DNA of 64,000 nt from Rothia sp. (in: high G+C Gram-positive bacteria) (lineage in GTDB: Bacteria; Actinomycetota; Actinomycetes; Actinomycetales; Micrococcaceae). The notes below the pieces were generated by a model. It was given only the letters and a program-made list of their open reading frames with translations, was not told the origin of the DNA and searched no databases. A program made the translations under genes and the position numbers. The stretch spans positions 290,130-354,129 of the forward strand of contig NZ_JAUNVZ010000001.1 in assembly GCF_030540545.1 (NCBI RefSeq). The letters run 5' to 3'. The stretch's first letter is position 1. The number at the start of each line of letters is the position of its first letter. This document shows, piece after piece, positions 10,015 to 59,771 of this stretch.

Positions 10015-10268
10015 AGTAGAGGCTTGAGGCGGTGCTCGCGCTCGCTTATACCCTCAGCTAAGCTCGCCCCGAGCGATATCGGGTACAGAAGGTGCACACA
10101 TAATTCCCAGGGAATACACATGAGCTACACCCTTCAAAGTGGGATATTCGGCGAGGTCAAGAGGCTATTATATTGAAGTATCTGTGCTGTGTACCCGATA
10201 CATGGATCGCGCGGCGCAGAGCCGATAGTGAGAGTTATCTACCCGTCTATTTTCGTCAAGGAGGCGTG

Positions 10269-11015
10269 ATGAGCGTTCCCCCGCAGCACCCCAAACAGAA
10301 TCAGCCCTACGGTGCTGCTTTCGACCCGGATGCGCCCTTTGACCCCAACGCACCCTTTAACCCGGTGGCACCGAGGTATGGGCAGCAACAGCAGCAAAAT
10401 GGCCAGGGCTACGCGCAGCCCTCACCCTATGCCCAAGCCGCGCCCCTGGCGCCTCAAACCCCGCAGCGATCCGCCTACGCTCAGAGTGCCTATGCGCAGA
10501 ATGCGCACGGGGCGCAGCATCATAGCGGTCCGTTGGATGCACCCTACGCCCACACCATCGAAGAAGAAACCAAACCCATCTGGCCTTGGGTCAGTGCCGG
10601 CGTGGGTGTTGTGGTGCTCGTGCTGATTGTGGCTGTGGTTCTTGCCTTTAGCGGCGCTCGGGGTAACGCGCCCACGCCGGCGGCAAGCGCCATTTCCTCA
10701 CCGAGTCCCTCGGCGACCCAGGGTGTATCGGTGACTCTCAAAGTTCAAAGCAATGGTGCAGCGGATATTAGCTATGGCAGTATGAAGAACTCTTCCAAAG
10801 CCAAGGACTCTATCAATGGTGCTTGGTCTAAAGATGTACATATTCCCGCAGGTCAGGATTATTTCGTCAGTGTATATGCCCACGGTGCTGATAGTATCAG
10901 CTGCTCTATTTTTGTGGACGGCAAAGAGGTCGATACTAAAAGCGCCACGGGATCCAGCTCAAGTGTGTACTGCTCAATTCCCCTTGATGTGCTCAACCAG
11001 AAGAATAAGGTCTAG
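10269..11015 (+). CDS. MmpS-domain single-pass membrane protein (paralog 3)
   Basis: Q/P-rich N-terminus, KPIWPW-TM, ISCSIFVDG...VYC; start ATG 10269 after AAGGAGG (track extends to 10173). Confidence 0.75.
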   Translation: MSVPPQHPKQNQPYGAAFDPDAPFDPNAPFNPVAPRYGQQQQQNGQGYAQPSPYAQAAPLAPQTPQRSAYAQSAYAQNAHGAQHHSGPLDAPYAHTIEEETKPIWPWVSAGVGVVVLVLIVAVVLAFSGARGNAPTPAASAISSPSPSATQGVSVTLKVQSNGAADISYGSMKNSSKAKDSINGAWSKDVHIPAGQDYFVSVYAHGADSISCSIFVDGKEVDTKSATGSSSSVYCSIPLDVLNQKNKV

Positions 11016-11251: not shown

Positions 11252-12541
11252 ATGAGCATCCCACCGCCCAATAACGCACCCCAGCCCGGTTCTGAACCTC
11301 AGAACACTGCACCCCAGGCACCTGCAGGCGCTGTGCCTGCGGTACCTCCGACTCCCGCTGGCGCTCCCGCTCCGGGCGCACCCCAGGGCGGTTACGGCTA
11401 CGACCCGAATGCTCAGGCATCCTACCCGCAGCAGGCACAGCAGCCCTACGCTCAGGATCCCAACGCTCCCTTCGTACCCCCGGCATATCAGCAGCAGCCC
11501 GGTCAGCCCTACGGTCAGGACGCCTACGCAGCGGGCCCTGGCGGCTACGCTCAGCCCACCGGCGGTTACGCACCCTATAGCCAGTACCCGCAGGAGCCTG
11601 CCGAGAAGAAGCCGATCTGGCCTTGGATTGCCGGCGGTTCCGGTCTGCTGGTTATTGTTCTGGTTCTGGTGCTTGTGCTGGTCTTTAGCATGAACGGCAA
11701 GAGCACCCCGGATGCACCCGTGACCACGGCAGCAGATACCACCAGCGCATCCGCAGAAACTTCTAGTGCTTCTGCTTCGGCGTCCTCGAGCTCCAGCAGC
11801 TCTTCCTCTGCTAGCGCGAGCGCTTCGGCATCCTCTAGCTCTTCTTCTGCGTCAGCACCCCAGGCTAGTGGCGATAAGCTGCCTCGTTACGCTCCCGATG
11901 GCGCGAAGAACGACGATAAGGTCAAGGTCAAGGTCACCGCTAAGGTGACCGGCAAGGCTAAGATCCGTTACGGCGCTTCCGGTTCCACCAGCACCGAAGA
12001 AGTTACTAATAGCGAGTTTGTGAAAGAAGCCGAAGTCACCCGTAAAGATGGCTACGATCTGGACGTTAGCGCTGACTACAATGATGATGCAGCTGAGGTG
12101 AGCTGTGCTCTGAGCGTTAATGATCAGGTGATTTCTCGTTACTCTGCTAAGGGTGCTAGCTCCTCGGTACAGTGCTCGATTCCGATGGAACACAAGATGC
12201 CCGAGCTCTACAACCGCGACTACATGCGCAAGGGCAGCGACTACGAGGGTGAAGAGGTAAACATCGAGGCGAAGGTTACTAGCAATGGTAATGTCCGTCT
12301 CTCCTACGGTCCCACCGAGGCAAGCAACCGTATTAAGCACAAGGGCGATTGGTCCACCACTGCAAAGCAGGAACGTCGCGAGAGCTATAGCGTATATGTG
12401 ACGTCCAGCTATGAAGATGGCGCAACCGAGATGAGCTGCACCATTCTGGTCAACGGCAAGGAAGTTGCTAAGAATACTGCAACGGGTAAGAACAGCAATG
12501 TAACCTGCACTATTCCTTACGAAGCTCGCCATAAGAGCTAA
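11252..12541 (+). CDS. Membrane protein with two tandem MmpS domains (paralog 4)
   Basis: P/Q/Y/G-rich N-terminus, KPIWPW-TM, poly-Ser linker, two domains each with xSCxxxVN...VxC. Confidence 0.75.
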   Translation: MSIPPPNNAPQPGSEPQNTAPQAPAGAVPAVPPTPAGAPAPGAPQGGYGYDPNAQASYPQQAQQPYAQDPNAPFVPPAYQQQPGQPYGQDAYAAGPGGYAQPTGGYAPYSQYPQEPAEKKPIWPWIAGGSGLLVIVLVLVLVLVFSMNGKSTPDAPVTTAADTTSASAETSSASASASSSSSSSSSASASASASSSSSSASAPQASGDKLPRYAPDGAKNDDKVKVKVTAKVTGKAKIRYGASGSTSTEEVTNSEFVKEAEVTRKDGYDLDVSADYNDDAAEVSCALSVNDQVISRYSAKGASSSVQCSIPMEHKMPELYNRDYMRKGSDYEGEEVNIEAKVTSNGNVRLSYGPTEASNRIKHKGDWSTTAKQERRESYSVYVTSSYEDGATEMSCTILVNGKEVAKNTATGKNSNVTCTIPYEARHKS

Positions 12542-12799: not shown

Positions 12800-13827
12800 A
12801 TGAACACTAAGAAACTCACTTCTTTTGGCGCAGCAGCCGCGCTGACCCTCTCCATGAGCGGTGCAGCTCTGGCTCCCGTCATTGCTGTCGAACCCGCCGT
12901 TGTAAGCACTGCAGCCGGTGCCTCCGTAGGTAGCGGCCAGGTGCAGCTGTCCAGCACCTGGAACCAGGGCGAAGCCCTGACCATTGCGGGCACTAACTTT
13001 CTGAACGCTACTGGCCAGCCCGTTGAGGTTATTATTGCCTTCGCCGGCCCCAATGGTGTGATCACCGTTAACGGCCAGCAGGCATTTAGCGTAACCGCGG
13101 ATGCCGCCGGTGCTTTACTATCAGCGTACCCTGGGATGAGGCACTGACCGACCAGGTCTCTGTGAGCGTATACGTTGGCCCCTCCGATCTGTCCATTTCT
13201 CCCGTGGTTGTGGGTCAGGTCAGCATTGTGAAGGCAACCCCGACCGAGCAGCCCAGCGAGCAGCCCACCGAGGCTCCGACTACCGCTCCGAGCGAGGCTC
13301 CTTCTGAGGCTCCCAGTGAGGCACCGTCGGAACAGCCCACCCAGGAGCCGACTGCCGCTCCCACTGAGCAGCCCACCGTAGCTCCCAGCGCTTCCTCGAG
13401 TGCATCTGCTGAGGCTAGTGCCTCTGCGTCTACTTCTGCGCCCGAAGCTGACGCGGATGTAGCAATCCACGAGGATGCCGCTGGAGATAAGATGGAATCT
13501 GCGGAGAACGGCGAGTCCACCCGTTTCGCTAATTGCCGCGAGGTGCGCGAGGCAGGCCTGGCGCCGATTCGCTCCGATCACCCGGACTTCCGCAAGAAGT
13601 TCGACCGCGATAATGACGGTATTGGTTGCGAGTCTGACTCCGACTGGGGTCGTAGCTCCTCCTCTTCTGATTCCTCGAGCACCGGTGGTTCTTCGACCAC
13701 TACCTCCAGCTCTTCGGGCTCCCTGGCTAAGACCGGTGCTAATGGTGTAGCAAGCGCCGCAGGCCTGGGTCTGCTGGCACTGGGTGCAGGTGCTGCTGTT
13801 ATCGTGCGTGCACGCCGCCAGAGCTAA
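12800..13827 (+). pseudogene. Sortase-anchored (LAKTG) surface protein with Excalibur Ca-binding domain, split by a 1-bp deletion
   Basis: Track ORFs 12800..13147 (signal peptide) and 13162..13827 join if TTT at 13114-13116 is TTTT (GAFTISVPWDEALTDQVSV); FANCREVR...DRDNDGIGCE Excalibur motif; LAKTG-TM-RARRQS sorting signal; TEQP/SEAP stalk. Confidence 0.8.
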
Positions 13828-13920
13828 CAGGGCGCGTACACGTCGCCAGAGCTAAGTATTAGCATAATTGCATATATATGTGTTTTGGGTGTGCCTAGCG
13901 TTCAGTTGAGCCTCATCCAG

Positions 13921-13948
13921 CACAGCTAAAACACAGCAATCGAACAGC
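13921..13948 (+). promoter_or_regulatory. PhoP-type direct repeats upstream of the DUF4956-VTC operon
   Basis: CACAGC (13921), CACAGC (13932), AACAGC (13943) at 11-bp period; a second pair CACAGG/CACAGA at 14026/14037. Confidence 0.55.
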
Positions 13949-14115
13949 CCCCACTTGGCAAAATGCCGGGTGGGGGCTGTTTTGCGTCCAAAAATAACGA
14001 AAACTTATACAGAGAAAACCCTAAACACAGGCGAGGCACAGATTCGGGCGGAAAGATAGAACTAAGCAGAAACGGGGCACACCCGATACAACACGAAGTA
14101 CAACGAAAGAAGAAG

Positions 14116-14733
14116 ATGATGACCTTCCTGCCTATGGCAATCGCCGACCTACTGGCCATCGCGGCATTGTGCACCATCTACCTGATGCGCCACCGTAACC
14201 GCGAAATGGCACTGTCCTACACCATTATCAATGTGGGTGTCTTCGCCGTTACCGTAGCCATGGCAAGCGCCTCCACCACCAGCGCGGCGCTGGGGCTGGG
14301 ACTCTTCGGTGTCCTTTCCATTATCCGCCTGCGCTCCACTGCCTTGAGCCAGCGGGAAGTTGCCTACTACTTCGTGGCTCTGGCAATGGGTCTGATTGCA
14401 GGTATCAATATTGACCCCGCTTATATCGCCTATAGCCTGATGGGTCTGCTGCTGGTCATTATGGCACTGGCAGACGGCAGCATTAAGAGTACTGCTCAGA
14501 AGAGCCAGATTATTACCGTAGACCGCGCTCTTAGCCGTGAAGAAGAGATTATTGCTTATCTGAATGCACGCCTGGGCTACTCGATCAGCTCCGTAAGCAT
14601 TAAAGAAATTGACCTGATCAACGATAAGACTATCGCTGAGATTCAGTACAGTGTACCGGCATATGCACCGGTAGAAGCAGCGCAGAGTGCACCGGCTGCT
14701 CTAAGCGCCACCCGCGTACCCGCAGCCTACTAA
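14116..14733 (+). CDS. DUF4956-family membrane protein
   Basis: INVGVFAV, GLGLFGVLSIIRLRS, REVAYYFVALAMGL motifs, several TM helices, soluble C-terminus; position before a VTC gene; likely start ATG 14116. Confidence 0.8.
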   Translation: MMTFLPMAIADLLAIAALCTIYLMRHRNREMALSYTIINVGVFAVTVAMASASTTSAALGLGLFGVLSIIRLRSTALSQREVAYYFVALAMGLIAGINIDPAYIAYSLMGLLLVIMALADGSIKSTAQKSQIITVDRALSREEEIIAYLNARLGYSISSVSIKEIDLINDKTIAEIQYSVPAYAPVEAAQSAPAALSATRVPAAY

Positions 14734-14774
14734 AGATGTATAGACCCGTTATACGGGTTACTTAAGGAGAGAAA

Positions 14775-15743
14775 ATGCGCCCTTTTGAAACAATCACCCA
14801 CCCGAATTGGCAGAACACTATCGCCACCGCATTTTCTCCGCGCCCAACCACCAGAGAGGATATCAAAATGGCACTCGTACCCACCTACTGGCAGAGCATT
14901 AGCCTGGAGGACATGAACGCTAAGGCCGCCATGCAAACCCGAATCGACCGCAAGTACATTGTCGAGGCACGCTACGCGGCGGCAGTCATGGCAGAGCTGA
15001 ACGCGGATGCCGCCGTCATGGAAATCAACGGCCAGCGTGAGTTCTCCTACGACTCGGTCTACTTCGATACCCCCTCCCTGGCAAGCTACCGCGCTGCCGC
15101 AACCGGTCGCCGCAACCGCTTCAAGGTGCGTACCCGCAGCTACCTGGATAGCGATTTGAGCTTCCTGGAAGTCAAGACTGAGGGTGAGCGCGCCATGACC
15201 GTAAAGGAACGCATCCCCTACCAGATTGAAAACCGCGACCGCCTGACCCGCGAAGGCCTGGACTATGTTGCCGAATCCCTAACCGGACTGCTGGAAGAAC
15301 CCGTGACCAATCTGGAACCGGTACTGACCACCGAATACAAGCGAACCACGGTGTTTTTGCCCCAGAGCCAAGAGAACCCGGTGGACTCGCGCATGACCGT
15401 GGATACCTCCCTGGCGTGGACCTCCCTGAGCGAAAACGCCCTGCTGTACAACGTGGACTTCGGTAACTACCACGGCCGTACCCTGGGTACCCGCTACACC
15501 GCACCGGGCATGGTCATTATTGAAACCAAATCCGGTACCGCCCCCTCGGTTGCCGATAAGCACCTGTGGAGCGCGGGAATCCGCCCGGTGAAGATCTCCA
15601 AATTTGCTACCGGCATGGCTGCGCTGAACCCGCAGCTGCCCGCCAATAAGTGGAATCGCGTGATTGAGCGCTGGATGCAGCTCTCCCCGCAGGGTGTGCC
15701 CCTGCAGGATCCGATCAGTGCGGCTATTCCGCTGGTTCGCTAA
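14775..15743 (+). CDS. VTC (CYTH-like polyphosphate polymerase domain) protein
   Basis: RIDRKYIV, SVYFDT, RFKVRTRSY, FLEVK, RMTVD, IIETK, SKF tunnel motifs; start may be ATG 14868. Confidence 0.85.
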   Translation: MRPFETITHPNWQNTIATAFSPRPTTREDIKMALVPTYWQSISLEDMNAKAAMQTRIDRKYIVEARYAAAVMAELNADAAVMEINGQREFSYDSVYFDTPSLASYRAAATGRRNRFKVRTRSYLDSDLSFLEVKTEGERAMTVKERIPYQIENRDRLTREGLDYVAESLTGLLEEPVTNLEPVLTTEYKRTTVFLPQSQENPVDSRMTVDTSLAWTSLSENALLYNVDFGNYHGRTLGTRYTAPGMVIIETKSGTAPSVADKHLWSAGIRPVKISKFATGMAALNPQLPANKWNRVIERWMQLSPQGVPLQDPISAAIPLVR

Positions 15744-15789
15744 ATACTTTTGATATAAAACTCACTCACTTATAGAAGGAACATTCTCT

Positions 15790-17478
15790 ATGATGAACGC
15801 CAATATTCCTAATACTCCTCAGCCGACCAAGAAGAGCTGGCAGGTAGCCACCGGCGCCGCCCTGATCGCTTCCTTAGCGCTCGCGGGCTGCTCGGCAACC
15901 GGCACCAACCTCGCTGCAAGCACCTCGGGTGCCAACGCGACAAGCTCCTCCAGCGCGGCGGCAAGCAGCGATAGCGGCGCCTCCTCGAGTTCGCTCTCCT
16001 ACACCAAGAGCGGCCAGAAACTGGATGTAAAAACCCACTACTCCGCCAAGGATAGCCAGGTAGACGCCTCGAATGCGACCGCCGTGAACCTCTCCTCGCC
16101 CAGCGCCACCACCGGCGTGAGCGTAGAAAATGGTGTGATCACCATTAACGCCGCCGGCACCTATAAGCTCTCGGGCGAATACAGCGGCCAGATCAAGGTC
16201 GAGGTAACCAAGAACGACAAGGTCACTCTAATCCTGGACAACGCCACTATTAGCAATAGCTCCGGCGCTGCCATCAATATTGTGCAGGCAGATGAAGTGG
16301 TACTCTACACCGCATCCGGCACCACCAATACCATCAGCGACGGCTCCAGCTATAGCGCGACCGGTGAGAATGACCCGGACGCAGCCATCTACTCCAAGGC
16401 CGATCTGACCCTTGCCGGTGAAGGTAACCTGAAGGTCACCGGCTCCTATCAGGAAGGTATTCACACCAAGGACGGGCTGGTAATTGCCGGCGGCACGGTT
16501 GATGTCACCGCCAAGAACACCGGTATTAAGGGCAAGGACTACGTGGATATCCTGGGCGGTACTATCAATGTCACCGCACAGCAGGACGGTATTAAGTCCA
16601 CCAACTCCACCGAGGATAACCGCGGCTGGACTCGCATGAGCGGCGGTACCGTGACCATTTCGGCGGGCGATGACGGTTTCAAGGCCGAGCACACCCTGGA
16701 AATCTCCGGCGGTACCCTGAACGTGACCAAGTCCAATGAGGGTATTGAGGCGCAGTACATCAATATTCTGGACGGCACCGTGAACGTCACCAGTAGCGAC
16801 GACGGTATTAATGCCTCCTACACCGAGAGCAGCTCGAGCACTACCTCTACGAGCTCTTCTCAGAATAGTCAGGGCTCGGCGAATGCGCCCGGTGGTATGG
16901 GTCAGCCCCCTGCCGGTTCTCGAGGCGGCAACTCTAATGGCGGCGGTATGGGTAATGGCGGCCCCGGTGGTATGGGCGGCGGCCACGGCACTTTCGCTGT
17001 GGTGGATGCAGCCGTGAATATCCTGGGTGGTACCGTGACCGTCAACGCCAATGGCGACGGTATTGACTCCAATGGCGTCGCAACCCTCTCGGGCGGTACT
17101 GTGACCGTCAACGGTCCTTTCACCGGTGGTAACACCTCCCTGGATACTAATGGCGATCTGCTGCTCAACGGCTCCACCGTGGTTGTAGCAAACGCCGGTG
17201 ATATGTTCGAGGCACCCGCAAGCACTTCCACCAGCGGCTATGTGAAGGTCACCGGCTCCTTTAAACAGGGCTCGACCGTACAGGTTGCCGACTCTTCCGG
17301 CAAGGTGGTGGCGAACTATAAGGTCAGCTCCTCCAGCGCAAAGCTGGTCATGGTCTCCTCGAGCGCCATCACCAAGGGTCAGTCCTACACCGTCTATAGC
17401 ACCACCTCTAGCGTGGACGCGAATGCCACCTCCGTGGCATCCGGCGCCATCAAGGTGGGTACCGTAACCGCCTCCTAA
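15790..17478 (+). CDS. Lipoprotein with Cthe_2159-type beta-helix carbohydrate-binding domain
   Basis: LAGC lipobox; VITINAAGTYKLSG, DAAIYSKADLT and repeated DGI/DGF beta-helix turns; G/M-rich insert; DGIDSNG. Confidence 0.8.
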   Translation: MMNANIPNTPQPTKKSWQVATGAALIASLALAGCSATGTNLAASTSGANATSSSSAAASSDSGASSSSLSYTKSGQKLDVKTHYSAKDSQVDASNATAVNLSSPSATTGVSVENGVITINAAGTYKLSGEYSGQIKVEVTKNDKVTLILDNATISNSSGAAINIVQADEVVLYTASGTTNTISDGSSYSATGENDPDAAIYSKADLTLAGEGNLKVTGSYQEGIHTKDGLVIAGGTVDVTAKNTGIKGKDYVDILGGTINVTAQQDGIKSTNSTEDNRGWTRMSGGTVTISAGDDGFKAEHTLEISGGTLNVTKSNEGIEAQYINILDGTVNVTSSDDGINASYTESSSSTTSTSSSQNSQGSANAPGGMGQPPAGSRGGNSNGGGMGNGGPGGMGGGHGTFAVVDAAVNILGGTVTVNANGDGIDSNGVATLSGGTVTVNGPFTGGNTSLDTNGDLLLNGSTVVVANAGDMFEAPASTSTSGYVKVTGSFKQGSTVQVADSSGKVVANYKVSSSSAKLVMVSSSAITKGQSYTVYSTTSSVDANATSVASGAIKVGTVTAS

Positions 17479-17493
17479 TAGCGACAGAAGCTA

Positions 17494-17524
17494 CGCCCGC
17501 TCTCGATACTCTCGAGAGCGGGCG
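17494..17524 (+). terminator. Hairpin ending the DUF4956-VTC-lipoprotein operon
   Basis: CGCCCGCTCTCGA...TCGAGAGCGGGCG. Confidence 0.6.
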
Positions 17525-17798
17525 CGGCGGTTAATAGGGGCAGCGGGAAGCGATGTGAAAATAAAACGCTCATTCTTCGTGAGCCCGCTCTGCTCAAGCC
17601 AGCCGCCTTAAAGAGCGATGAAGCGGAATAATATATGCCTGCACAGCCATAATTTGAGGAAAAGCGCATAAATATCGCCCGCGAACAAGACAGAAGGCGG
17701 GTTAACAAGGTACCCTGTATAGAGAGAAAAGACTGTTAAACGATCCGCGCGCACTCCTAACGTGCACAGCGGACAGGATGGAAGAAGGGGGTCACGCC

Positions 17799-18011
17799 AT
17801 GGGGCGCGGCCGTCAGAAGGCTAAGGCAACTCGTCAGGCTCGAGAGATGAAGTACTCCATTCTCGAAACCGACTATAGCGCACTCGAGCGCGAGCTCAGC
17901 GGCGCAAAGAAAAGCGACACCTCCGCAAAGTCGACCCGTCGTGCACGCGATGAGGACGACGACTACTCAGCATACGCTGAGAAATACGCCAACTACGGCG
18001 ACGAGGACTAA
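17799..18011 (+). CDS. DUF3073 small actinobacterial protein
   Basis: MGRGRQKAKATRQAREMKYS signature; usual neighbour of purM. Confidence 0.85.
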   Translation: MGRGRQKAKATRQAREMKYSILETDYSALERELSGAKKSDTSAKSTRRARDEDDDYSAYAEKYANYGDED

Positions 18012-18028
18012 TCGCTTCATATAGCACC

Positions 18029-18059
18029 CCGGCGGATACCCACGGTATCCGCCGGTTTT
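18029..18059 (+). terminator. Intrinsic terminator after DUF3073
   Basis: CCGGCGGATACC-CAC-GGTATCCGCCGG-TTTT. Confidence 0.75.
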
Positions 18060-18134
18060 ACTTTAAGTTTCTCAACCACTCGCACAGAAAACACACCCAA
18101 ACTAAGAAGAGCATAAACACAGCACAAGTTCCTG

Positions 18135-18318
18135 CACAGCAAAAGCACAGATATACAAAGAATGTATAGACTATACGACTAAAGTCTGCTCCTAGTGAGG
18201 CGTAAAACCTAGCTAGAGCATCGGTCAAACACAGCTAAAAAGCCCGGAAAATCAAGGAAGATACGGGGTGCAACTACAGGGGTGCACCTAAAAATGTAGC
18301 TCATAGCCGGTGCATAGC
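18135..18318 (+). promoter_or_regulatory. PhoP-type direct repeats upstream of the NAGPA-GT2 operon
   Basis: CACAGC/CACAGA at 18135/18146, CATAGC/CATAGC at 18302/18313 (11-bp period), and CACAGCTAAAA at 18230, identical to 13921. Confidence 0.45.
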
Positions 18319-18361
18319 TTCTACACGATAAACACAAAAACTAGCCTGCGATTCTAGAACC

Positions 18362-19393
18362 ATGAACAACGCAGAAAACACTCAGGTACAGAACATTCAG
18401 GCAAACGACGCAGAGCAGAAAAAAGCTCAGCGCAAGAAAATTACTCGACGCGCACTCATCGGCGGCGGCGCAGCAACCCTGGCAGTAGCCGGCGGCGGCG
18501 CACTCTGGGCATACGACCGGTATCTGGCCGAACACACCCAAATCTCAGACACCACCGCCTACGAGGCAGCACAGCGCTCCTCCAACGCAACGGCAGGCAA
18601 TAGCGCAGCAGCAAGCACCGAAGCCCTCACCGGCGTGAAGGTCAGCGACAAAACCCTCACCGCCAATGAAGGCTCGATCAGCATCAAGACCGTGGTCGAA
18701 GGCAGCGGATCCAACCAGATCACCAGCTACTACGCCGAAGCCAAACTGAACGACGCAACCCTGCTACGCGGCGCATTCGCCAATAATAAATTCGGCCAGA
18801 ACATTATTGACACGCCCAGCAATATCTCCAGTCAGCATAATGGCGTCTTCGCCATCAACGGCGACTACTACGGCTTCCGCACCACCGGCATTGTCATCCG
18901 AAACGGCGTAGCCTACCGTGACGCCGGTGCTCGCGAAGGTATGGCGTTCTACCGTGACGGCAGCGTAAAAATTTACGACGAAACCGCCACCAACGCCCAG
19001 ACTCTCATCAATGAGGGCGTGTGGAACACCCTCTCCTTCGGCCCGGCACTGGTCAAGGACAGCCAGGTCGTTAGCGGTATCGACTCGGTCGAGGTGGACA
19101 CCAACTTCGGTAACCACTCCATCCAGGGCAACCAGCCGCGAACCGGTATCGGTGTACTGGGGAAAAATCACTTCCTGTTCATCGTCACCGACGGCCGCTC
19201 CCAGGGCTACTCGCGCGGCGTGACCATGCCCGAATTCGCCCAAATGTTCAAGGACGCTGGATGCACCGCCGCCTACAACCTCGACGGCGGGTTCTCCTCC
19301 GCCATGGTCTTCAACGGCTCCCTGGTCAATAAGCCCGGCGGCGGCACCAAGGAACGCGGCACCAGCGACATTCTCTACATTGCGAAAGCATAA
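18362..19393 (+). CDS. Phosphodiester glycosidase (NAGPA-domain) exported protein
   Basis: AINGDYY, SFGPALV, QPRTGIG, DGRS, YNLDGGFSS motifs; twin-arginine-like TRRALIGG signal. Confidence 0.85.
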   Translation: MNNAENTQVQNIQANDAEQKKAQRKKITRRALIGGGAATLAVAGGGALWAYDRYLAEHTQISDTTAYEAAQRSSNATAGNSAAASTEALTGVKVSDKTLTANEGSISIKTVVEGSGSNQITSYYAEAKLNDATLLRGAFANNKFGQNIIDTPSNISSQHNGVFAINGDYYGFRTTGIVIRNGVAYRDAGAREGMAFYRDGSVKIYDETATNAQTLINEGVWNTLSFGPALVKDSQVVSGIDSVEVDTNFGNHSIQGNQPRTGIGVLGKNHFLFIVTDGRSQGYSRGVTMPEFAQMFKDAGCTAAYNLDGGFSSAMVFNGSLVNKPGGGTKERGTSDILYIAKA

Positions 19394-19396
19394 ACC

Positions 19397-20518
19397 ATGA
19401 TTATCCTCATCCCCGCCTATAAGCCCGATACATCACTCGTGCATCTGGCCCACGCGCTCAAGGCACAGCATACCGGTAGCGACCCGCTCACCCTTTTGAT
19501 CATCAACGACGGCTCCGGTGACGAATACGCCCCGATTTTTGATGAACTGCAGGCACTGGGTGCAGAAGTAGAACACCACCCGGTCAACCTCGGTAAAGGT
19601 GCGGCGCTGCGCACCGGTCTGAATTGGGCGCGCCTATACCGCCCCGAAGAAATCGTGATCACCGCGGACGCCGACGGCCAGCATTTACCTAAGGATATTT
19701 ACACCGTCGCCGAGCATACTCTGCAGGCGGCTAAGCAGCAGCGTAAAGCACTCGTGCTGGGTGTACGCACCATCCCCGACCCGGCAGCGGGTCTAGAAGG
19801 CACCAAGGTACCCCTGCGATCCAAAGTGGGTAACTCGATGACCGTGGGTTTCTTCGCCCTGGCAACCGGCACGAAAATTGCCGATACTCAGACCGGCCTG
19901 CGCGGATTTACTCCGCAGATTATCGACTGGGCGCTGGAGATTCCCGGCAATAAATACCAGTACGAGTTCAGCATGCTGCTACGCGCCACTCGTGCCGGTG
20001 TAGACCTGGACGAGGTGCCCATTACCAAAGTCTACGAGCCGGGCAACCCCACCAGTCATTTCCGCCCTCTACAGGATTCCGCGCTGATTTATGCGCCTCT
20101 GCTGGGGTTCCTCGCCTCCTCCTTTCTGGCGGGGTTCATGGTGGATGCGCTCGCCCTCTTCGCCCTGGTAGCGGCCGGTGTGCCCCTGCTAGGAGCAGTT
20201 GTGGCGGCGCGATGCATCTCGGCACTCTGTAATTTCATGGTCAATCGCCTTATAATGCAGGACGGCGCTCAGCGCCCCAGTATTCAGCGCTCCATGGTGC
20301 GTTATGCTGTGCTTGCGGTAGCCCTGCTCATTGCTAATGCGGCTCTACTAGAACTGCTGGTTTCTTTGGGTATTCACCTGGTATTGGCAAAGATCCTCAC
20401 CGAGCTAGTACTGATCCCCATTAGTTTCGCGGTACAGCGCCGCTGGGTATTCCTCCCTGTCCAGAAAACCCAGACTGCCATTCTATCTGCCCGTCAGCAG
20501 ACCCTTATCTACCACTAA
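19397..20518 (+). CDS. Bifunctional GT2 glycosyltransferase / GtrA-family flippase
   Basis: LIPAYKP, INDGS, NLGKGAAL, TADADGQH (DxD), DTQTGLRGF, then a 4-TM GtrA-like C-terminus. Confidence 0.85.
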   Translation: MIILIPAYKPDTSLVHLAHALKAQHTGSDPLTLLIINDGSGDEYAPIFDELQALGAEVEHHPVNLGKGAALRTGLNWARLYRPEEIVITADADGQHLPKDIYTVAEHTLQAAKQQRKALVLGVRTIPDPAAGLEGTKVPLRSKVGNSMTVGFFALATGTKIADTQTGLRGFTPQIIDWALEIPGNKYQYEFSMLLRATRAGVDLDEVPITKVYEPGNPTSHFRPLQDSALIYAPLLGFLASSFLAGFMVDALALFALVAAGVPLLGAVVAARCISALCNFMVNRLIMQDGAQRPSIQRSMVRYAVLAVALLIANAALLELLVSLGIHLVLAKILTELVLIPISFAVQRRWVFLPVQKTQTAILSARQQTLIYH

Positions 20519-20525
20519 TGACAGG

Positions 20526-20590
20526 TTTGGGACGCTTTAGCGCGTTTGGGATGTATCTAAGACATCCCAAACGCGCTAAAGCGTCCCAAA
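20526..20590. terminator. 29-bp perfect-stem bidirectional hairpin
   Basis: TTTGGGACGCTTTAGCGCGTTTGGGATGT / 7-nt loop / exact reverse complement, between convergent genes. Confidence 0.8.
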
Positions 20591-58307: not shown

Positions 58308-58592
58308 GGGGGTCTCCTCAAAGAAAAAATACTAATAGTTAAGCGCTGCAGAGCGCCCGTTTGGTGAGTTGACCGGGCAGTGTCTGTGTGAGCTACCCGG
58401 TAGATGTGACATATTCAACTAATAAGAGCGTACCGCATATTTAAAAATTCTGCACCCAAAATACAGCCAGAATGGCAAAAATTTTTGCGTACCAGCAAAA
58501 ACATAAGAAAAACACAGGTTCAACGCGTAGGATACATAATCCAACGGTAGGCATGTGCACACCTGCTGCCGAGAACATAAAGGAGAAATGGA

Positions 58593-59771
58593 TTGTTTAG
58601 CTCTCTAAATATCCTCGACGTCCTCATCCCCATTATCCTGCTGCTGTACTTCCTGAGCGGACTACGCAGAGGCTTCTTCACCACCCTGGGCACCTTCGCC
58701 GGTCTAGCCCTGGGTGCCTGTGCCGCAGCCTGGCTCATCCCCCAAGCCATTGCAGCAGTCGGAACCCGCTGGGCACTCATTACCTTCCTGCTGGTGCTCG
58801 TCCTCTGCCTAACCATAGGTCAGTGGCTGGGCACCCTCGCCGGAGGCGCCATCCGCCGAGTCACCGATATAACGCCCCTCAAAGGCGTAGAACGCTTAGG
58901 CGGCGGCCTGCTGAACCTGGCAGCCTGCGCCCTGGTCATGGTGGTGCTCACTATTAGCGTACGCACCCTGCCCGTGCCTTCGCTCAACCTTGCGCTCTCT
59001 GAATCCAAGACCCTGTCCTGGATGGTAGAAAACACCCCCAACGGGCTAAAAGAGCGCATTGAATCGGCTCGAAGCGATGTGCTGGCAACCCGCACCATCC
59101 CCGAAATTGGGCAGCTGATCACCCCCGCCGCAGAAGCCCCGGTAGAGTATAACGACACCGCGCAGCTGCAGGCGGCAAGCGCCTCCGTGGTGCAGATTAT
59201 GGGCACCGCCGAAGCCTGCGGATACACCTCCACCGGCTCCGGATTCGTCGCCGATCAGAACCTTGTCGTGACCAATGCACACGTGGTTGCCGGTGTGGAT
59301 GCGCCCGTGGTGCAAGATAGCCGCGGCCGCATGTACAAGGGCCAGGTGGTCTATATGGACAGCGCCCAGGACCTTGCCTTTATCCGCACCGTCAATATGC
59401 CGCTAAGCCCCCTGGCCATCGGCAACAACGCGCGCCCGGGCACCGAAGTGGTCTTTATGGGCTACCCCAAGGGTGGTCCCTTTAGCGCCAAGCCCGCCAC
59501 CGTGCAGGGTATCGGTAACACCCAGACCATTGACGCTGAAAGCGGTAAGAGCAACCCCATGCGTCAGGTCTATCAGCTGGCAGCCGATGTGCAGCACGGT
59601 AACTCCGGCGGTCCGGTGCTTACCAGCGACGGCACCGTAGTCGGCGTGATCTTCGGTAAGGCAACCACCGGTCAAACCGGTTACGCCATTTCGGCAAGCA
59701 CCCTGCAGGCCGATTTGGCAGAAGGCGGCGCCAATACCGCAGCGATTTCTACCGGCACCTGCCGAGCCTAG
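58593..59771 (+). CDS. marP: MarP-family membrane serine protease
   Basis: 4 N-terminal TM (CvpA-like), C...TGSGFV, VTNAHVVAG, DLA, GNSGGPV. Confidence 0.88.
   Translation: MFSSLNILDVLIPIILLLYFLSGLRRGFFTTLGTFAGLALGACAAAWLIPQAIAAVGTRWALITFLLVLVLCLTIGQWLGTLAGGAIRRVTDITPLKGVERLGGGLLNLAACALVMVVLTISVRTLPVPSLNLALSESKTLSWMVENTPNGLKERIESARSDVLATRTIPEIGQLITPAAEAPVEYNDTAQLQAASASVVQIMGTAEACGYTSTGSGFVADQNLVVTNAHVVAGVDAPVVQDSRGRMYKGQVVYMDSAQDLAFIRTVNMPLSPLAIGNNARPGTEVVFMGYPKGGPFSAKPATVQGIGNTQTIDAESGKSNPMRQVYQLAADVQHGNSGGPVLTSDGTVVGVIFGKATTGQTGYAISASTLQADLAEGGANTAAISTGTCRA

Follow-up and report, generated by a model that had tools for sequence, protein, structure and literature searches.

The stretch of DNA analysed here, referred to as the window, comprises 64 kb with ~57% G+C and derives from a Rothia-like member of the Micrococcaceae. 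It contains a set of five genes, spanning positions 14116-20518 and all oriented in the same direction, that code for a DUF4956 membrane protein, a soluble VTC-domain protein, a beta-helix lipoprotein of the Cthe_2159 family, a NAGPA-family phosphodiester glycosidase and a GT2 glycosyltransferase with a GtrA-type membrane domain. A first-pass annotation had named these families, together with the DUF3073 gene that lies among them, and Pfam confirmed every domain at the following coordinates:

14116..14733, + strand: DUF4956 membrane protein (PF16316, E 6.5e-48)
14775..15743, + strand: VTC-domain protein, soluble, Vtc4-like (PF09359, 96.9 bits, E 2e-27)
15790..17478, + strand: Cthe_2159-family beta-helix lipoprotein (PF14262, 243 bits, E 4e-72)
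17778..18011, + strand: intervening DUF3073 gene (E 6e-20)
18362..19393, + strand: NAGPA-family phosphodiester glycosidase (PF09992, 122.9 bits, E 2e-35)
19397..20518, + strand: fusion of GT2 and GtrA_DPMS_TM (E 1e-13 and 7e-13)

As read from the sequence, the genes form three predicted transcription units. Operon 1 comprises the genes for DUF4956, VTC and Cthe_2159, which are separated by gaps of 41 and 46 nt and preceded by good ribosome-binding sites; the start of the VTC gene at 14775 is backed by the ribosome-binding site AAGGAG. The mechanically derived open reading frame (ORF) of DUF4956 begins at 13963, i.e. within the terminator hairpin of the preceding gene. The later start at 14116/14119 preferred in the first-pass annotation is borne out by public gene calls, which use the 204-aa form (P0121). 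Operon 2 consists of the NAGPA and GT2-GtrA genes, the latter starting 3 nt past the NAGPA stop, and is followed by the convergent purM and purF genes. The middle unit is DUF3073 on its own, with its own promoter region and terminator. The units are delimited by these elements:

13943..13981, + strand: hairpin that terminates the surface-protein gene upstream (inverted repeat I9 with 18-nt arms of 89% complementarity and TTTTG behind it)
17494..17524, + strand: perfect 13-bp hairpin CGCCCGCTCTCGA / TCGAGAGCGGGCG without T run, directly 3' of the Cthe_2159 stop
18029-18055, + strand: strong terminator of DUF3073 with T run
20526..20590, no strand assigned: perfect 29-nt inverted repeat I1 (100% complementary, 7-nt loop) between the convergent GT2-GtrA and purM genes

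The first of these hairpins is the 5' limit of operon 1 and the second is probably its end, while the inverted repeat at 20526-20590 probably acts as a bidirectional terminator and forms the 3' limit of operon 2. The hairpin after Cthe_2159, the DUF3073 terminator and the repeat after GT2-GtrA thus confirm that there are two co-oriented operons split only by DUF3073. With a promoter region and a terminator of its own and no copy of the regulatory box described below, DUF3073 is not part of the system but a bystander in its usual place near purM and purF; it does not lie within the cluster in the Arthrobacter group and Klenkia. Upstream of DUF3073, at 17700-17745, there is a conserved element GGTACCCT-n10-12-AAAGACTGT, which is present in all Rothia loci inspected, is unrelated to the box and has no match in Rfam. 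The sole Rfam match in the window is a tRNA. A scan of the region with the sigma-70 consensus found no plus-strand promoter, a result that is compatible with activator-dependent promoters but uninformative. No RNA sequencing runs with the window sequence were found; DNA runs have 8-9% of its words in common.

The VTC protein covers profile positions 2-234 of 235 of Pfam PF09359, its score of 96.9 bits comparing with a cut-off of 23, and VTC is its only Pfam domain. It has no hydrophobic segment. Among the GTDB species representatives the closest match is 69% identical (Rothia aeria), and a metagenome protein reaches 96%. No close reference genome was seen for the window organism, a Rothia-like species; the contig itself is present in one Logan run. 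A PDB search with the single sequence returned nothing relevant, and a profile built from VTC orthologs matches only Vtc4, Vtc2 and Vtc3. The AlphaFold model (predicted local distance difference test, pLDDT, 81.5) places the same three proteins on all Foldseek ranks from 1 to 13 (E 5e-13 to 5e-10, TM ~0.5). The next matches after Vtc are ygiF, AtTTM3 and thiamine triphosphatase, with ygiF and CyaB-like proteins at E 8e-7 or worse, and tunnel enzymes other than Vtc are at least six orders of magnitude worse in this fold search. Profile matches and fold ranking agree with the polyphosphate (polyP) polymerase domain named in the first-pass annotation, the structurally nearest relative being Vtc4. 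In the profile alignment, R264, R266, K281, Y359, R361 and R373 of Vtc4 correspond to the invariant residues K117, R119, K134, Y188, R190 and R206. Five of the six fall into the set that is essential for polyP synthesis by Vtc4, which comprises the triphosphate-binding residues K200, R264, R266, K281, Y359, R361, S457 and K458 and the Mn-binding E426 (bioRxiv 10.1101/2023.01.27.525886). Within this set, K458 sets active Vtc4 apart from the inactive Vtc2 and Vtc3. The motifs RxDRKY, ETKS and ISKF are invariant in ~90 VTC orthologs.

Two database entries that join VTC to other domains deserve mention. P0031, a 514-aa "fusion" of DUF4956 and VTC, was discarded, since its DUF4956 part becomes garbled in the C-terminal half, as if by a frameshift. 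P0349 combines VTC and CotH in one ORF with an intact lipoprotein signal between them, and is either a read-through of adjacent genes or a genuine fusion of an inside and an outside protein. We used it as evidence for adjacency and topology only: the position of the lipoprotein signal places VTC inside and CotH outside.

For DUF4956, five helices and a C-terminal beta-alpha-beta-beta (ACT-like) domain are predicted. Two basic clusters are invariant, RHRxR after helix 1 and IIRLRS...QRE (within a GVLSIIRLRS motif) after helix 3, and the basic loops and the C-terminal domain are predicted to lie on one and the same side of the membrane. According to the positive-inside rule, this side would be the cytoplasm. 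A sequence search of the PDB found no solved relative, and no fold match was significant; Foldseek returned weak matches to ACT domains. A relationship to MgtC, which the architecture had brought into consideration, is unsupported, as the MgtC Pfam domain PF02308 was found in only 2 of 28 DUF4956 members at E ~1. That DUF4956 might form a channel is suggested solely by its constant pairing with VTC and its conserved arginines.

The third protein of operon 1 is a lipoprotein, as first annotated, with the lipobox LALAGC at residues 29-34; the Paenarthrobacter ortholog has a lipobox as well. Its PDB matches are 4PEU/4PHB (E 1e-34), the solved Cthe_2159 structure. The beta-helix is interrupted by a low-complexity loop rich in Gly and Met (GGMGG-type; residues ~356-400, positions ~16855-16990), which recurs in 76/83 orthologous ORFs compared with 14/1031 other long ORFs. 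The loop may serve in metal binding or as a flexible linker, and comparable GGMGGPGG runs are seen in cluster-linked CotH lipoproteins (L068, L087). CotH lipoproteins join or replace Cthe_2159 in six loci of the Arthrobacter group (L049, L068, L078, L086, L087 and L088). A tblastn search of the window with an Arthrobacter CotH sequence gave no match, and the window ORFs scanned with Pfam, a part of the total, contain no CotH, DUF4832 or pel-type domains.

In operon 2, NAGPA exceeds the Pfam PF09992 cut-off of 25 with its 122.9 bits and has 6OZD, 3OHG and 6PKI as PDB relatives. At its N-terminus it carries a twin-arginine signal or anchor, TRRALIGGG, the RR motif of which is found in 93 of 120 homologs. 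GT2-GtrA possesses a DADGQH motif (DxDGQH in 73/77 orthologs) and four C-terminal hydrophobic helices. Its sole PDB relative is the dolichol-P-mannose synthase (DPMS) of Pyrococcus, 5MLZ, a protein of equal length that was matched over the membrane domain. The best NCBIfam match, PpgS (NF058614), reaches 65.1 bits against a cut-off of 370, which falls short of orthology. As judged from its sequence, GT2-GtrA is a synthase of the polyprenyl-phosphate sugar type and not a PpgS ortholog. It shares with Pyrococcus DPMS and with mycobacterial PpgS, which is accompanied by Rv3632, the GT2 fold with DxD and the C-terminal four-helix GtrA/DPMS domain. In contrast to these systems, the window cluster has no GT-C transferase but a translationally coupled exported NAGPA. 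The topologies of the lipoprotein, the exported NAGPA and the DPMS-like glycosyltransferase are thus as predicted.

To survey the distribution of the five genes, 80 species-level loci were fetched with the VTC profile and the window proteins were mapped onto them; all counts below refer to the 63 loci with full 10-kb flanks. DUF4956 adjoins VTC in 63/63 loci, as it does in the window. Cthe_2159 comes next after this pair in 61, and a CotH gene takes that position in the other two. NAGPA and GT2-GtrA are present in 55/63 loci and are always paired except in L048, which has a partial NAGPA ORF only; all five genes occur together in 55/63 loci. Rothia loci show the gene order of the window, including the intervening DUF3073. 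In Arthrobacter, Pseudarthrobacter and Paenarthrobacter the cluster lacks DUF3073, and its genes are contiguous in the order NAGPA-GT2GtrA-DUF4956-VTC-Cthe_2159. In Klenkia soli, which belongs to another order, the two modules diverge from a spacer of 150 bp, and VTC is followed by a gene for a Cthe_2159 member of 580 aa. Since three rearranged orders still hold the genes together, there is a strong argument for functional coupling of the five, and their co-distribution, supposed in the first-pass annotation, holds across three independent gene orders.

Several individual loci deviate from these arrangements. Actinomyces gerencseriae (L081, 6734-12832) has a tandem DUF4956-VTC-DUF4956-VTC-Cthe_2159, in which both VTC copies keep ETK and the S-K motif (LSKY, ISKY), unlike the split into active Vtc4 and inactive Vtc2 and Vtc3 of yeast. 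In Rothia aeria (AP017895.1, L010, 11215-16603) several Cthe_2159-like ORFs, perhaps paralogs or frameshifted copies, follow VTC in a row, and NAGPA is split over two ORFs. Variant clusters without Cthe_2159, NAGPA and GT2-GtrA are found in Arthrobacter pullicola (L078, 6152-12290) and A. gallicola (L088); L078 contains a Na/sulfate-symporter-family gene, LssY_C, DUF4956, VTC and CotH.

A repeat shared by the two promoters had been noticed in the first-pass annotation. There are five copies of the octamer AAACACAG in the 64 kb, where 1.56 are expected, and four of them lie in the two intergenic regions. An alignment of orthologous upstream regions sharpened this repeat to a 19-bp box of the PhoP type, which is conserved in orthologous promoters of divergent genomes. 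It consists of two 8-bp units and a 3-bp spacer, i.e. a direct repeat with an 11-bp period and the core CA(C/T)AG, also given as (T/A)CACAG. Examples are AACACAGG-GTA-AACACAGG before DUF4956 and GTCACAGC-TCA-AACATAGG before NAGPA. In Rothia, where the box was counted with a loose pattern, 27/28 loci have it ahead of DUF4956, each time on the forward strand and at a distance of 73-126 nt from the start. Ahead of NAGPA it occurs in 23/25 loci, between -51 and -125. It was found upstream of DUF3073 in none of 28 Rothia regions and on the reverse strand of no region. In the Arthrobacter group all 46 forward-oriented loci have it upstream of DUF4956, 67-133 nt before the start. Its position there is either within a short spacer or within the 3' tail of GT2-GtrA, which is not conserved, so that unit 1 keeps its own boxed promoter in the Arthrobacter-type cluster, too. 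A position weight matrix built from orthologous sites, from which the sites 13919 and 18133 were left out, reaches at least 16 bits at only four sites in the window (13919, 14024, 18133 and 18217). The boxes of the window, including a threefold one, are as follows:

13919..13937, + strand: distal box AGCACAGC-TAA-AACACAGC, 24.6 bits, the best in the window, just upstream of the terminator of the preceding gene
14024..14042, + strand: proximal box of operon 1, AACACAGG-CGA-GGCACAGA, 19.9 bits, 92 nt before the DUF4956 start
18133..18151, + strand: distal box of operon 2, TGCACAGC-AAA-AGCACAGA, 21.7 bits
18217..18235, + strand: weaker box of operon 2, AGCATCGG-TCA-AACACAGC, 16.1 bits
18300..18329, + strand: proximal box of operon 2, made up of three 11-bp units in succession, CTCATAGC-CGG-TGCATAGC-TTC-TACACGAT

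The box at 18300-18329 is followed by the -10-like hexamer GATTCT. Because this hexamer is only 6 nt away from the NAGPA ATG, it suggests that the transcript of the NAGPA operon may be leaderless. A weak box, AACATAAGAAAAACACAGG, at 58500-58518 on the + strand scores 13.4 bits, which is below the cluster sites, and lies ~90 nt upstream of a gene for a CvpA/trypsin-like membrane protease (58593-59771).

Throughout 1.59 Mb of fetched loci there are 111 matches of at least 17 bits, 97 of them at the two promoters. The remaining 14 comprise six before VTC, found in the R. nasimurium group and in L002, a Rothia metagenome-assembled genome, four before the gene of an OmpR-family response regulator with a histidine kinase gene behind it, three before a CotH lipoprotein gene and one on the reverse strand (L088) before a transporter-like ORF. 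The complete cluster of Arthrobacter agilis runs regulator, kinase, CotH, NAGPA, GT2GtrA, DUF4956, VTC and Cthe_2159, with boxes before the regulator, CotH, NAGPA and DUF4956. A PhoP-like regulator and a kinase adjoin the cluster behind a PhoP-type box in L049, L050, L077, L086 and L087; a regulator gene was not found in the window. Among solved proteins the cluster-linked regulator is nearest to PhoP of Mycobacterium tuberculosis (242 bits), compared with 197 for PrrA, 155 for MtrA and 148 for RegX3, and in our reading of the sequence it keeps 4/6 base-contacting residues of PhoP helix alpha-8. It falls below the NCBIfam cut-offs for MtrA and PhoB. Initially, the box had been read as an MtrA box (GTCACAgcg), but this was dropped as the regulator is far closer to M. 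tuberculosis PhoP than to MtrA. In NCBIfam, the neighbouring kinase matches the heavy-metal sensor subfamily best, though below its cut-off.

The binding sites of M. tuberculosis PhoP are direct TCACAGC repeats spaced by 4 bp, TCACAGC-n4-TCACAGC (PMC4832192), and the site of Corynebacterium glutamicum PhoR, which drives the phosphate-starvation response, is CCTGTGAA-n3-CCTGTGAA, in reverse complement TTCACAGG (PMC3353115). The box of the cluster resembles these PhoPR and PhoRS systems in its TCACAG direct repeats of 7-8 bp with an 11-bp period, as does the cluster-linked regulator in its closeness to PhoP; it differs in its target genes, which are new, and in that the window has no regulator gene. 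Since the conserved box is common to both promoters, both operons, each with a putative PhoP/PhoR-type box, are very probably co-regulated. In our judgement, it is likely that the five genes belong to a single co-regulated envelope unit.

Taken together, we favour the view that the cluster is a conserved actinobacterial envelope module, in which two units under one PhoP/PhoR-type box would combine the synthesis and export of polyP with the remodelling of a glycan or phosphodiester; we put its probability at roughly 0.45. The chemistry proposed for VTC and DUF4956 is drawn by analogy with the yeast VTC complex, in which Vtc4 makes the polymer and an attached membrane channel translocates it in a coupled process (bioRxiv 10.1101/2023.01.27.525886). 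By this analogy, the Vtc4-like tunnel enzyme would work at the cytoplasmic face, build a phosphate chain from a nucleoside triphosphate and pass this chain to DUF4956, whose arginine clusters would face the cytoplasm and which would move the chain across the membrane. Outside, the Cthe_2159 beta-helix lipoprotein, or in some relatives a CotH lipoprotein with a kinase fold instead, would bind or process the polyanion. GT2-GtrA/DPMS would make a polyprenyl-phosphate sugar at the inner side, which is then flipped; the substrate of the exported NAGPA could be this flipped lipid-linked sugar-1-phosphodiester or a glycosyl-phosphate polymer of the wall. Unit 2 would in this manner decorate or trim the surface product of unit 1, and the whole set would be controlled by a two-component system of the PhoP/PhoR type (OmpR family). 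The specific proposal that the five-gene unit makes and exports polyP is a tentative one. A further elaboration is doubtful: VTC-DUF4956 might be a coupled polyP synthase-translocase that delivers its product to the outer face of the cell membrane, a side that lacks ATP, where the polymer would be a wall polyanion held by Cthe_2159 beta-helices and maybe a phosphoryl or energy donor for CotH, with the NAGPA/GT2-GtrA pair adding or removing a sugar cap without a GT-C transferase.

A number of observations weigh against the export of polyP by such a module. With the eukaryotic VTC complex, the bacterial system shares the Pfam domain, a fold nearest to Vtc4, Vtc2 and Vtc3, the six conserved tunnel residues and the invariable pairing of the VTC protein with a membrane protein. 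On the other hand, the bacterial VTC protein has neither an SPX domain nor membrane helices in the same chain, and its partner DUF4956, for which the model confidence is only moderate (pLDDT 65), has no detectable similarity to the three-helix Vtc1/DUF202 subunits or to any channel. The predicted product would, moreover, go to the outside of a Gram-positive cell and not into a vacuole. The equivalents of K200, E426, S457 and K458 could not be aligned, and as fragment profiles of the N- and C-terminal motifs missed Vtc4, their positional match to the invariant motifs RIDRK60Y, IE250TKS and IS275K276F is a putative one. Of the full set of basic tunnel motifs claimed in the first-pass annotation, six Vtc4 residues thus stand by profile alignment and these four by motif only. 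Outside the cell, Cthe_2159 is documented as a binder of cellulose and polygalacturonate, not of polyP (PMC6712302).

The glycosidase of operon 2 adds a further reservation. At residues 308-312 (19283-19297) the window NAGPA has DGGFS in place of DGGGS, although the catalytic Asp is kept. DGGGS, recently shown to be an invariant catalytic motif of human NAGPA (PMC13474241), is present in 118/120 homologs and in 74/77 locus orthologs, and DGGFS recurs in the 96% relative P0389. Since the change requires two base substitutions and is found in two assemblies, it is real, and NAGPA may be altered or weakened in the window species. Membership in the NAGPA family is upheld by Pfam and PDB matches, and the catalytic motif departs from what the first-pass annotation of an enzyme would lead one to expect. 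The protein agrees with the mannose-6-phosphate uncovering enzyme NAGPA and the DUF2233 proteins (3OHG, 6OZD) in its catalytic core family, the catalytic Asp and the membrane-tethered extracytoplasmic location, but differs from the uncovering enzyme in being bacterial, in its twin-arginine signal or anchor, in the missing EGF stalk and in DGGFS.

The gene neighbourhoods, too, limit the unity of the module. NAGPA and GT2-GtrA are missing in 8/63 loci, and Cellulomonas composti has this pair without VTC and DUF4956. Therefore, unit 2 is not obligatory for unit 1. The five-gene unit of the first-pass annotation is upheld as far as co-distribution is concerned; what had been overlooked is that the NAGPA/GT2-GtrA pair is separable, that there is a link to CotH and that some relatives have a two-component regulator beside the cluster. 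Finally, no functional study of bacterial VTC/DUF4956 was found in the open literature.

Among the alternatives, phosphate scavenging survives best, yet we regard it as unlikely. Here the direction would be reversed: the lipoprotein would capture external polyP or phosphoglycan and NAGPA would uncover phosphate from sugar-1-phosphate polymers, whereupon DUF4956 would import the polyanion and the tunnel enzyme would hydrolyse it processively in the cytoplasm, the system being switched on by phosphate limitation via the PhoP/PhoR-type regulator. PolyP is plausibly present in the habitats of Rothia and Arthrobacter, which would suit such a function. Many tunnel metalloenzymes are tri- or polyphosphatases, as the structural matches next after Vtc remind us, and the box matches that of C. 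glutamicum PhoR, a phosphate-starvation regulator (PMC3353115). However, the fold and the Pfam assignment of the VTC protein are of the VTC type and not of the CYTH type. Hydrolytic tunnel enzymes typically have an acidic ExExK first strand, whereas RxDRKY is found here. Furthermore, the loci show no link to pst or pho genes, the box being confined to the cluster genes, the regulator, CotH and one transporter-like ORF, and the scavenging scheme leaves the glycosyltransferase GT2-GtrA without a role.

It is improbable that the locus consists of two independent modules, a surface-glycosylation or remodelling pair and an unrelated DUF4956-VTC-Cthe_2159 unit, with only the regulator and the neighbourhood in common. 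The promoters are separate in every lineage, also within the Arthrobacter-type cluster, where DUF4956 has an internal promoter with a box of its own, and the loci in which the pair is missing or, as in Cellulomonas composti, stands alone would be easily explained, as would Actinomyces gerencseriae, which has two DUF4956-VTC pairs and Cthe_2159 but no NAGPA/GT2-GtrA pair. Against this, the adjacency outlasts three rearrangements in two actinobacterial orders, and both promoters carry the same box. As the intergenic DNA has strongly diverged, conserved adjacency together with a conserved box exceeds what would be expected of a neighbourhood kept by descent. The least probable alternative is that the VTC-like protein is a nucleotide or triphosphate sensor or hydrolase that regulates or energises DUF4956 as a small MgtC-like transporter or regulator, e.g. 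in cation or metal handling: the five helices and ACT-like C-terminus of DUF4956, the conserved Gly/Met-rich loops of the surface partners and the sub-threshold heavy-metal affinity of the neighbouring kinase would fit, but the MgtC domain is all but lacking in DUF4956 members, the basic residues for holding a triphosphate or polymer are retained in the VTC tunnel, and the cluster-linked regulator is PhoP-like, not CopR-like.

With respect to the favoured envelope module, the closest described arrangement is an accessory group of CotH, polyphosphate polymerase, DUF4956 and DUF4832 beside Gram-positive pel loci, reported without function (Whitfield et al. 2020, PMC7112168). Both have a DUF4956/VTC core with secreted partners. 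In the window, however, the partners are Cthe_2159, NAGPA and GT2-GtrA, while CotH, DUF4832 and pel were not found among the ORFs scanned, and the PhoP-type box is not described in that paper. Other papers that name DUF4956 list it in expression tables only. The first-pass statement that bacterial VTC/DUF4956 neighbourhoods have no established function is therefore in line with the open literature. Bacterial polyP synthesis is attributed to PPK1 and PPK2. A review on polyphosphate treats VTC as eukaryotic. As far as could be found, the five-gene form, the PhoP-type box, the two-component link and the interchange of Cthe_2159 and CotH are undescribed.

All component families of the cluster are known, and its interest thus lies in testability rather than in demonstrated new biology. 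Bacterial VTC-domain proteins form ~4,500 clusters at 50% identity, for none of which a role is known. The locus offers a compact, regulated test case with a fixed membrane partner, defined surface partners and a predicted regulator site, and it has relatives in tractable soil bacteria and oral Rothia. If VTC makes and exports polyP, this would represent a new route to extracellular polyphosphate, and the recurrent CotH/VTC/DUF4956 neighbourhoods beside biofilm loci would be explained. The coupled NAGPA/DPMS-like pair is a separate lead, as it may represent a lipid-linked sugar pathway without a GT-C transferase.

Upstream of the cluster, the window contains further genes for membrane, secreted or surface proteins on the + strand. 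Positions 11252-12541 and 10173-11015 encode two proteins that are membrane-bound or secreted and have little or no Pfam assignment. One, of 429 aa, combines a Pro/Gln-rich N-terminus with a single helix, a poly-Ser tract and two C-terminal halves that resemble each other; the other, of 280 aa, shows a faint Mycobact_memb match. A frameshift splits the surface-protein gene directly upstream of the cluster into ORFs 12800-13147 and 13162-13827 (+), which lie in different frames. The first carries the signal peptide, and the second Pro/Ser-rich repeats, an Excalibur-like calcium motif (DxDxDGxxCE) and an LAKTG sortase anchor. In relatives (L006), intact Excalibur proteins of ~380-400 aa occupy this position, and the split gene at 12800-13827 is probably a pseudogene or an assembly error.

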